From contig CAYMBN010000001.1 in the NCBI GenBank assembly GCA_964388715.1, positions 138,962-202,961 on the forward strand: a DNA stretch of 64,000 nucleotides. The letters run 5' to 3'. The position numbers and the translations under genes are program-made. Source of the stretch: an uncultured Methanosarcinales archaeon (GTDB lineage Archaea; Nanobdellota; Nanobdellia; Woesearchaeales; CAYMBN01). Shown here piece after piece: positions 29,173-42,770 of the stretch. The notes under the pieces were generated by a model. That model was not told the DNA's origin. It saw only the letters and a list, made by a program, of their open reading frames with translations, and ran no database searches. Position 1 is the first letter of the stretch, and every line of letters starts with the position of its first letter.

Positions 29173-29346
29173 GGCTCTGTGGCTCAGTCTGGTTAGAGCG
29201 CTCGAGTCCCTTTTGGGGCAGCGAAACTGATATCCTTTTTGGATGCCGGAGATTGTATTTCCGCGCAACTAGGCTAGAGATCGAGTGAAGAGTACTAGTA
29301 ATTCTAGGCTCTCTCGAAGTCCCGTGTTCAAATCACGGCAGAGCCA
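29173..29346 (+). tRNA. tRNA-Ile(GAT) with three introns: 30/31 (29205-29225), 37/38 (29233-29279), 45/46 (29288-29318)
   Basis: Removing the three segments gives GGCTCTG TG GCTC AGTCTGGTTA GAGC G CTCGA CT GAT AA TCGAG TGGTC CCGTG TTCAAAT CACGG CAGAGCC A, a perfect cloverleaf. BHB-type motifs at the junctions. Confidence 0.9.
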
Positions 29347-37696: not shown

Positions 37697-37761
37697 TTTT
37701 TTACTTTTTCTTTTTTATTTTCCAAAAGCTTTATAAATTAAAATAAAATTCTAAACAACAT

Positions 37762-37924
37762 GCCTCCATAGCTTAGTGGTTCGAGCGTGCGGCTGTTACT
37801 TCAGCTTCGCTGAAGATCTACAAAAGCGAAGCTTTTGAAGAAACCGCAAGGTCACCAGTTCAAATATCAAACTGTGTTTGATGCATTCAAAAAGCGCAGT
37901 TTTTTGAAAGTCTGGTTGGAGGCG
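37762..37924 (+). tRNA. tRNA-Asn(GTT) with two introns: 37/38 (37799-37842) and 59/60 (37865-37910)
   Basis: Spliced: GCCTCCA TA GCTT AGTGGTTC GAGC G TGCGG CT GTT AA CCGCA AGGTC ACCAG TTCAAAT CTGGT TGGAGGC G. T-loop intron has a TTCA/TGAA central helix with 3-nt bulges. Confidence 0.92.
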
Positions 37925-41909: not shown

Positions 41910-42010
41910 TTTCGGCAGAGCCGAAACTCTTTGAAATTTGTTTCAAATTTCTAAGATGCTCAGAAACGCTTTGCGTTTCTGACACGTTTAGAAAAAGAAT
42001 TTTTTCTAAA
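41910..42010. repeat. Composite array of four short hairpins (palindromic repeat family)
   Basis: TTTCGGC-AGA-GCCGAAA, TTTGAAA-TTTG-TTTCAAA, TCAGAAACGC-TTT-GCGTTTCTGA, TTTAGAAAAA-GAAT-TTTTTCTAAA. Confidence 0.9.
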
Positions 42011-42064
42011 AGTTTTCTATATTTGCTAAATATTTATAAAGTTATGTGGATTTTGGAATTTAAA

Positions 42065-42708: not shown

Positions 42709-42770
42709 AACCACAACTTTTAGAAATCAGAGATTTCTAAACGGTTTGAAAATTCCTAAAAATTTCCAAA
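42709..42770. repeat. Intergenic palindromic repeat element upstream of cdc6
   Basis: TTTAGAAATC-AGA-GATTTCTAAA plus imperfect TTTGAAAATT...AATTTCCAAA. Confidence 0.8.

Follow-up and report, generated by a model that had tools for sequence, protein, structure and literature searches.

Two predicted introns in a tRNA-Asn gene of a Woesearchaeales archaeon, one of them a copy of a twin-hairpin unit found at one site in many tRNA types

A tRNA-Asn(GUU) gene with two predicted introns

The window analysed here is a stretch of 64,000 nucleotides (nt) from an uncultured archaeon assigned to the order Woesearchaeales (contig CAYMBN010000001.1, positions 138,962 to 202,961), and coordinates refer to it unless a contig of the genome assembly (G000) is named. 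The assembly comprises 1.3 Mb (1,300,152 bases) in 31 contigs, with 31% G+C and a completeness of 95.75%. The subject of this work is a tRNA-Asn(GUU) gene at 37762..37924, located with all its parts on the forward strand, which in-silico splicing reduces to a cloverleaf of 73 nt. Exon 1 (37762..37798) corresponds to tRNA positions 1-37, exon 2 (37843..37864) to positions 38-59 and exon 3 (37911..37924) to positions 60-73. They are separated by intron 1 (37799..37842, 44 nt) at the canonical position 37/38 and by intron 2 (37865..37910, 46 nt) in the T-loop at position 59/60, the latter being a member of the twin-hairpin family described below. Once 37799-37842 and 37865-37910 had been excised by script, ARAGORN called a regular tRNA-Asn(GTT) of 73 nt. 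As read from the sequence, a TTTATAAA box is located about 25 nt 5' of the gene and a T-run on its 3' side.

Neither ARAGORN with default settings nor Rfam at the gathering score detected any tRNA in the window. With introns allowed, ARAGORN reported 20 tRNA genes in G000, the tRNA-Asn gene not being among them, and the Rfam tRNA model gave 20 places at E up to 1, with 14 of the 20 above the cut-off. A finder designed in the style of SPLITS was also used, in which acceptor-stem seeds are taken, bulge-helix-bulge (BHB) candidates are enumerated, up to three of them are removed and the resulting cloverleaf is checked. It resolved 36 credible tRNA genes with about 45 introns in G000, against 20 genes from the standard finders, which suggests that the annotation of such genomes is badly incomplete. 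A T-loop intron at 59/60 was present in 14 of the 36 genes, and most such introns finish with (T/C)GAAAG ahead of T60. Anticodon GTT occurs only in the window gene. As tRNA-Asn is single-copy among the 36 resolved genes, both introns must be removed. The genome encodes one EndA gene (C2:54172-54432; PF01974 match of 101 bits in an open frame of 178 amino acids, aa) and two RtcB genes (two PF01139 matches). The window gene is an ordinary essential tRNA gene carrying two introns predicted to be spliced by proteins.

A second, heavily interrupted tRNA gene was observed at 29173-29346 (C1:168134-168307). ARAGORN assigned it to Ser(GCT) with a 99-nt intron, while in the analysis with the own finder Gly(CCC) with one 94-nt intron tied with Ile(GAT) with three introns. 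Apart from this possible gene, Ile(GAT) is absent from the tRNA inventory of G000.

Hairpins, alternative folds and splice motifs

The preliminary description of the locus had reported two hairpins in each intron and, for each pair, a refolding into one long stem. All four hairpins and both long stems were recovered letter for letter. Intron 1 contains hairpins at 37799-37815 and 37821-37837, each of 7 bp with a loop of 3 nt, and its alternative long stem pairs 37803-37811 with 37825-37833. The first hairpin of intron 2 (37866-37882) is likewise of 7 bp with a loop of 3 nt, or of 8 bp if the U.G pair starting from 37865 is included (37865-37883). The second (37886-37908) has 8 perfect bp, or 10 with one G.T, and the alternative long stem of 11 bp joins 37869-37879 to 37892-37902. 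Genome-wide, 765 perfect hairpins (at least 7 bp, loops of 3-5 nt) were counted in the 1,300,152 bases, a density at which about 0.05 would be expected per 90 nt, and four were found in the two introns. Stems of at least 10 bp are enriched in the genome (76 observed, about 14 in shuffles). A single 7-bp hairpin is meaningless, since perfect hairpins of that length are not enriched (476 observed, 463 in shuffles).

Folded alone with RNAfold, both introns adopted the twin hairpins, with -17.2 kcal/mol (z -3.6) for intron 1 and -12.2 kcal/mol (z -2.2) for intron 2. Together with the flanking exon stems, the minimum-energy fold of each intron was the long stem, as the preliminary description had anticipated. 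The splice-motif core of intron 2 (37859..37908) is a 4-bp helix between T-loop positions 54-57, UUCA (37859-37862), and UGAA (37905-37908). It is bordered by the bulges AA|U (37863-37865) and AG|U (37909-37911), with the 5-bp T stem as outer helix and the long stem as inner helix. The BHB geometry is thereby complete, with 4/4 central pairs, two bulges of 3 nt and an outer helix. At -15.7 kcal/mol the splice-competent state is isoenergetic with the twin-hairpin state at -15.6 kcal/mol.

The central helix of intron 1 (37793..37840) is imperfect. It opposes CUGU (37793-37796) to GAAG (37837-37840) as C:G, U:A, G.A and U.G, the bulges are UA|C and AA|A, and the anticodon stem forms the outer helix. 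The calculated energies were -16.2 kcal/mol for the BHB fold, -19.9 for the twin hairpins and -22.4 for the minimum-energy long stem. Purine-rich 3' ends (GAAGAA, AAAGAA and GGAGAA before A38) recur in the tRNA-Asn introns of relatives, from which the G.A mismatch looks like a feature that has been kept.

Intron 2 belongs to a family spread over many tRNA types

In a first search of relatives, the two best matches to intron 2 were T-loop introns of Gly(UCC) (93%) and of a Pro(UGG)-like tRNA (84-85%) from other families of the order, not of tRNA-Asn. A BLAST census with a 60-nt query against 401 genomes of the order detected the family in 11 genomes, G000 included, and 11 of the 13 non-self places were T-loop introns at 59/60. 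Two further BLAST places, in G113 and G365, were left uncounted because they lie inside long open reading frames (ORFs) and match the first half only (12 and 22.4 bits). A covariance model built from 12 introns (R1) added two T-loop copies in G238. Applied to a sample of 151 genomes, it gave five more T-loop copies, one copy placed by eye in an anticodon loop and three copies outside tRNA genes. The T-loop copies thus amount to at least 19 in 12 genomes, that of G000 and 18 in 11 other genomes. The confident copies number 24, namely 19 T-loop introns, four outside tRNA genes and the one in an anticodon loop. These copy numbers are lower bounds, 2 (BLAST) or 40-150 (model) candidates having been scored per genome. 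A pattern scan of genome contigs found two true family members among the 118 loci listed, both of them T-loop introns.

Twelve anticodons are represented among the solved hosts: GTT, TGA, TCC, CAT, GAG, GGA, GCT, GCA, GAT, GAC, TAT and CCC. Identity to intron 2 of G000 ranges from 77 to 93%, the highest value being reached in Ser(TGA) and Gly(TCC) genes of genomes from two other families. In one genome (G129) each of three tRNAs has a copy, and these are by eye about 90% similar to one another; G000 has a single copy according to R1. The family thus shows closely similar introns across different isoacceptors, the mark of a transposed intron family. In every copy the whole unit of about 46 nt is conserved as a single piece. 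The T stems vary between the hosts, which argues that the unit does not travel with the T arm. As judged from sequence comparison, intron 2 represents one copy of a well-delimited unit of about 46 nt with two folding states, which has become distributed over many types of tRNA at a single site.

Conservation of the folds was evaluated in an alignment of 12 family sequences including the T arm. In the twin-hairpin fold, 92.9% of the cells are paired. Hairpin 1 is the better conserved, with 99% of cells paired and three pairs changed on both sides, one of which (15:27) occurs with four pair types. Hairpin 2 is the weakest element (88% paired). In the fold combining the BHB with the long stem, 96.4% of the cells are paired; the BHB central helix is 100% paired in 12/12 members. 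In the long stem 97.2% of the cells are paired and three pairs have changed on both sides, among them 21:45, which connects the two loops. The two folds can be told apart by certain pairs. Pairs 20:46, 21:45 and 22:44 support the long stem alone, as they join the loops of the two hairpins, while pairs 12-15 with 27-30 support hairpin 1 alone, as the long stem does not include them. When the partners were shifted by 1-3 columns, pairing fell to 33-55%, and the observed covariation score was reached by 0/500 shuffles. RNAalifold, unaided, returned the T stem and the long stem. The compensating changes support both folds of the intron 2 family.

Internal copies of T-arm sequence (GGTTCAAACC, GGTTCAATCC and GGTTCAAAGC) were observed inside three other 59/60 introns of G000, in Ser(GCT) (C1:214769-214884), Glu(TTC) (C3:122495-122601) and Lys(CTT) (C11:12350-12470), where they can compete with the real T-loop for the 3' end of the intron. 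The decoy logic of these introns is the same as that of tRNA-Asn intron 2.

Copies outside tRNA genes

The copy in G377 (36.5 bits) is located on the opposite strand of a 550-aa ORF (L061, 902-2554), in which it forms an in-frame insert of 51 nt, or 17 aa. The ORF was identified as component I of anthranilate synthase (trpE), with E-values of 2.4e-90 to solved structures, and it is the antisense strand of the unit that codes for residues about 335-351 of the protein (P0001). Of the 15 trpE homologues aligned, 11 lack the insert (67-85% identity, lengths of 533 or 536 aa); another represents the same protein with an extended start. P0003 (15 aa) and P0028 (about 16 aa) carry different inserts at the same site, so that this loop may be an insertion hotspot or may hold older, decayed copies. 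In-frame insertion into genes is known from the Rickettsia palindromic elements (RPE).

Two identical copies of 41 nt (35.1 bits) were found in G138 within a repeat of about 103 nt, 90% identical between its two loci (L193, 1474-1575; L197, 1473-1575). According to own ORF calls, the repeat is free of ORFs of at least 60 aa at one locus, and an ORF of 103 aa overlaps it at the other. A further copy (31.8 bits) lies between two genes of G049. None of the non-tRNA copies in G377, G138 and G049 is accompanied by remnants of a T-loop or acceptor. Occurring at least four times outside tRNA genes, the unit has the behaviour of a small mobile element. In common with elements of the repetitive extragenic palindrome (REP), REPIN or RPE type, it is an inverted palindrome doublet able to form one long hairpin and it has one in-frame insertion in a gene. 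Its dispersal is unlike theirs, with one copy in G000 and at least two non-tRNA copies in G138 as the most per genome.

Intron 1 and the tRNA-Asn genes of relatives

An order-wide search with intron 1 revealed full-length homologues in the tRNA-Asn genes of G370, G399 and G111, three genomes of one genus (g112), with 82, 77 and 75% identity over 60 nt, respectively. In all three the T arm is intact. Hairpin 1 is retained in these orthologues, G111 showing a change from G:C to A:U. Alignment of intron 1 with the G370 orthologue scored 33 (0/1000 shuffles).

Within G000, the tRNA-Arg(CCT) gene on contig C10 carries a 49-nt intron at 37/38 that likewise forms two hairpins. Intron 1 aligned with it at a score of 30 over 43 columns (reached by 3/1000 shuffles) and hairpin 2 of intron 2 at a score of 34 (0/1000). 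Intron 1 has both hairpin modules in common with the Arg(CCT) intron, and the likeness of intron 2 to that intron is at the level of modules only. The two tRNA-Asn introns aligned with each other at a score of 21 (24/1000 shuffles). Where intron 1 lies in the g112 orthologues (L045, L046, L048), model R1 gave no match, and on the tRNA-Asn intron of G034 it gave only 15.8 bits. The best explanation is that intron 1 is an older, diverged relative of the same modular kind as intron 2.

A separate observation concerns L194 (G071:C9:57438-57482), the copy placed in an anticodon loop. It matches R1 with 33.3 bits and, by eye, sits in a Val(GAC)-like tRNA, a position that the own solver did not confirm. 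It resembles intron 1 of the g112 tRNA-Asn genes, having AACTGTGTTGAA and CGCAG in common with it, and is possibly a bridge between the 37/38 and 59/60 families.

The presence of introns was then compared in the 60 nearest genomes, which are all of the same order and each of another family. In 24 tRNA-Asn loci of relatives, no intron was present in 11 and a 37/38 intron alone (11-41 nt) in seven; two had introns at both 37/38 and 59/60, with T-loop inserts unrelated to intron 2, three had another or uncertain arrangement and one was unsolved. Intron 2 occurs in none of the 24 loci.

Contigs of four DNA runs were also compared with the window, and no intron-less allele of the source organism was found among them. 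One contig of 173 nt belongs to a different organism (4 mismatches over 39 nt), and where intron 1 has 41 letters it shows 10 others, an insert of roughly 10 nt at 37/38. Among the contigs matching 37760-37861 in runs X1, X3 and X5, those of another organism, present in three runs, carry a shorter variant of intron 1 and diverge from the window from 37861 onwards, inside the T-loop. Such relatives in the same kind of sample suggest a fast turnover of introns among close relatives.

Proposed reading and its weak points

The reading preferred here is that of a single tRNA-Asn(GUU) gene with two BHB introns, the second of which is a copy of a family of twin-hairpin units of about 46 nt. A probability of roughly 0.55 is assigned to it. 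In one state, the RNA of intron 2 would form two local hairpins. In the other, the hairpins would open and pair with each other as the 11-bp stem, while the 3' UGAA would pair with UUCA of the T-loop (positions 54-57), making the 4-bp helix and the two 3-nt bulges for cutting by EndA; RtcB would then join the exons. The exon T-loop could replace the 5' arm of hairpin 2 by strand exchange, because that arm copies the T-loop sequence in half of the family. We infer that such an exchange is what makes insertions at 59/60 spliceable and lets them be kept. Cleavage itself, movement at the DNA level with the enzyme responsible, the direction of transfer and the strand-exchange model are deduced in this reading from sequence and predicted folds.

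Several points weigh against this reading. The cleavage sites of both introns are predicted from the geometry of the motif, and intron positions are partly circular, since the tRNA finder places introns by the BHB rule. For intron 1 the central helix has 3/4 pairs, with the G.A mismatch opposite G34, the fold predicted at minimum energy lacks the BHB, and the BHB fold is 3.7 kcal/mol less stable than the twin hairpins. Its orthology leans partly on G370 and G111, both flagged as unpublished, and since R1 misses the g112 orthologues, the mutual homology of the two tRNA-Asn introns is weak. As to hairpin 2 of the family, the T-loop-like TTCAAA arm occurs in 6/12 members only, and its outer pair 36:55 is unpaired in 7/10 members with letters at both columns. 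The own solver failed on three family hosts, gave a doubtful result on a fourth and left the G071 copy unplaced, and the E-values of R1 are rough. An empty-site sister allele is missing, because all relatives compared belong to other families, and no movement is shown within G000, where the family is single-copy. A search of G000 (95.75% complete) with PF01797 for a transposase of the Y1/RAYT/IS200 type gave 0 matches.

A tentative extension, less probable than the reading itself, is that the unit of about 46 nt is non-autonomous mobile DNA whose second hairpin, as a mimic of the T-loop, makes a new spliceable intron in one step. Upon landing at 59/60, the exon T-loop would displace the mimic arm and a ready-made BHB would result. 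Landings elsewhere would survive only if harmless, either in intergenic DNA or as in-frame additions to a protein surface loop. The general idea of the preliminary description, that a mobile unit of palindromic type can serve as a tRNA intron, is supported by the occurrence of the family in 12 anticodon types together with its copies outside tRNA genes.

The family may instead have begun as a tRNA intron, with the trpE and intergenic copies being secondary. Intron RNA, excised or circular, would have been converted back to DNA, or recombination would have moved the DNA of an intron. The preponderance of T-loop introns (19 of the 24 confident copies) fits this direction, as do the intron ends (TAT... 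...GAAAC or GTATG) that the non-tRNA copies retain. The intergenic copies of G138, being embedded in a 103-nt repeat, suit rather an element with a life of its own, and we consider this reverse direction rather unlikely.

Relation to the intergenic hairpin repeats of G000

The preliminary description had proposed that the introns arose by paired insertion of palindromes from the intergenic repeats of G000 itself. The genome is indeed rich in such repeats. A family of AT-rich hairpins, with arms that begin with TTT and end with AAA and flanks of the AAACCG/AGTTTT type, often occurs in pairs or arrays. It has 43 perfect copies of at least 8 bp outside tRNA genes, mostly intergenic, and adjacent hairpin pairs number 97 in G000 against 46 expected. 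Look-alikes in G377 and G009, which belong to other families, indicate that it is order-wide, and it is possibly a terminator, a promoter-linked site or a miniature inverted-repeat transposable element. The arms read TTTAGAAA / TTTAAAAA / TTTGGAAA ... TTTCTAAA, and the inner stems vary in a compensating way. The hairpins are linked by CCG, CGG, ACT or AGT into pairs and arrays, in the window at 41910-42012 and 42719-42741. The first of these places is an intergenic composite element of four hairpins (41910..42012, forward strand), with which the preliminary description had compared the intron and whose relation to it was not demonstrated. This composite, of about 100 nt, has four copies in G000, three of them long and one short (C1:180865-180985, C3:98905-99025, C3:52946-53060 and C8:13700-13775), that of the window being one of the four.

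The introns were compared with these repeats in several ways, using shuffles that do not preserve inverted-repeat structure. The likeness of the GATGC..TCA.AAA linker to 41955-41966 did not exceed chance, as intron 2 scored 22 against the four composite copies, a value reached by 120/500 shuffles and by 50/500 random intergenic 46-mers; the local alignment score of intron 1 with the composite was reached by 226/500 shuffles. A profile built from the 43 intergenic copies only was the comparison named beforehand as able to refute the proposal. With it, intron 1 was no better than shuffles, 201/300 of which matched or beat it, and intron 2 was only marginally better (36/300). With arms and flanks included, the scores were -17.6 for intron 1 and -1.7 for intron 2, the family median being 31.3, and the score of intron 2 was also reached by 3.9% of random intergenic 62-mers. 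With blastn-short, the introns and their halves gave no non-self match in G000 better than E 0.24 among the matches listed. Of the 12 places at which the AAAGC..GCTTT core occurs in G000, three are in tRNA introns and nine in roughly called coding regions, which leaves no copy elsewhere in intergenic DNA.

Some results point the other way. With an arms-only profile, intron 2 scored 7.5 against a median of 21.1, a value reached by 6/300 shuffles, and half of the intron family (6/12 members) was reached by at most 12/300. The next-best matches of R1 in G000, ranking right behind the intron itself, are intergenic twin hairpins with rough E-values of 0.0024, 0.06, 0.088 and 0.11; among them are C11:26069-26119 (28 bits, E 0.0024), 41957-42012 of the window (21.9 bits, E 0.088) and C11:4662-4704 (E 0.11). 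Hairpin 2 of some relatives, and that of the trpE copy, nearly reads as an intergenic hairpin. The letters matched between introns and repeats are, however, largely A-runs and T-runs, which pairing with the T-loop imposes anyway. The arms-only profile and R1 together give a weak hint of a distant link at the sequence level, not a demonstrated relation.

An origin by paired insertion of the TTTAGAAA-type arrays or of the composite at 41910-42012 is accordingly improbable. Two separate insertions do not agree with a unit kept as one piece in all copies, and descent from the intergenic repeats of G000 with neither the failure of the full profile nor the lack of a free-standing intergenic copy of the core. 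What stands of the preliminary description is that both introns are twin-hairpin repeat units with alternative folds; the linker likeness and the intergenic-repeat origin are not supported.

Two further explanations

The twin-hairpin state could also be functional in itself, as the form in which an excised, stable and perhaps circular intron RNA works in trans. Such a function would account for the conservation and would be compatible with the preferred reading. In its favour, strong covariation is seen in the outer pairs of hairpin 1 (12-15 with 27-30), although the splice-competent fold does not include them. The trpE copy, antisense inside a gene, speaks against it, and a role of this kind is doubtful. 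A C/D-box guide RNA was considered and dropped, UGAUGA being present, by eye, in only 2/12 members.

That these are ordinary, vertically inherited BHB introns whose likeness between tRNAs is convergence forced by the T-loop and the splice motif is very improbable: the T-loop and its complement are indeed shared constraints, and 14/36 tRNA genes of G000 have a 59/60 intron, but the 93% identity runs through loops and linker, the other 59/60 introns of G000 are unrelated in sequence, intron 2 is absent from the 24 tRNA-Asn loci of relatives and the copies outside tRNA genes already contradict it.

Significance and comparison with known systems

How introns arrive in archaeal tRNA genes is an open question, and the mechanism of their transposition was called unknown in the passages cited here from a 2014 review (PMC4090602). 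In the present data, one unit of 46 nt is seen in three settings: as an intron at one site of a dozen tRNA types, as an in-frame trpE insert absent from close homologues and as part of an intergenic repeat. It links tRNA introns to small palindromic mobile DNA by a sequence traceable across genomes. If true, an element mimicking the T-loop would be a concrete and testable route of intron gain in archaeal tRNA genes, and the covariation seen for both of two mutually exclusive folds gives easy experimental access to EndA cleavage. A literature search, with subscription journals outside its coverage, found no description of this family, nor of palindromic repeats being connected with tRNA introns in DPANN archaea or Woesearchaeota.

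The closest published parallel is found in the Thermoproteales, for which families of transposed BHB tRNA introns were described (Fujishima et al., 2010, as summarised in PMC4090602) and benchmark figures are given in the cited part of a preprint (bioRxiv 10.64898/2026.10.13.758758). There as here, movement is inferred at the DNA level, with an unknown mechanism according to the cited passages of PMC4090602. The differences are several. The present lineage is an order of the Woesearchaeota type within DPANN, the family is tied almost wholly to the T-loop position 59/60, and its closest copies lie between genomes of different families (93%), not within one genome. A further difference is the bistable twin-hairpin form of the unit, in which both folds are backed by covariation, and copies occur also outside tRNA genes, whereas none is reported for the Thermoproteales in those passages.

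Non-canonical 59/60 introns, many disrupted tRNA genes of DPANN archaea and variants of EndA are covered in the parts cited here of Kaneta et al. (2018; PMC5829648) and Fujishima et al. (2011; PMC3239211). The present genome agrees with that picture, as many intron-bearing tRNA genes are missed by standard finders, 59/60 is a known position and a single EndA gene is encoded. In the cited parts, those papers count and classify introns and enzymes, without sequence families of introns in DPANN archaea.

Among repeats, the REP doublets (REPINs) treated in the cited part of Bertels and Rainey (2011; PMC3116915) are inverted palindromes that form two hairpins or one long hairpin, as does the unit described here. 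Like REPINs and the Rickettsia elements, it is found in dispersed copies, one of which is inserted in frame into a protein gene. Unlike REPINs, it has a low copy number (1 to 4 per genome seen), most of its copies are tRNA introns, and the Y1/RAYT transposase was not found in G000. The intergenic TTT...AAA arrays of the same genome are similar in being short AT-rich hairpins with loops of 3-5 nt, often in adjacent pairs and with weak cross-matches to R1. They are set apart by their conserved arms and flanks, of the AAACCG/AGTTTT type, and by a full profile that the introns fail.

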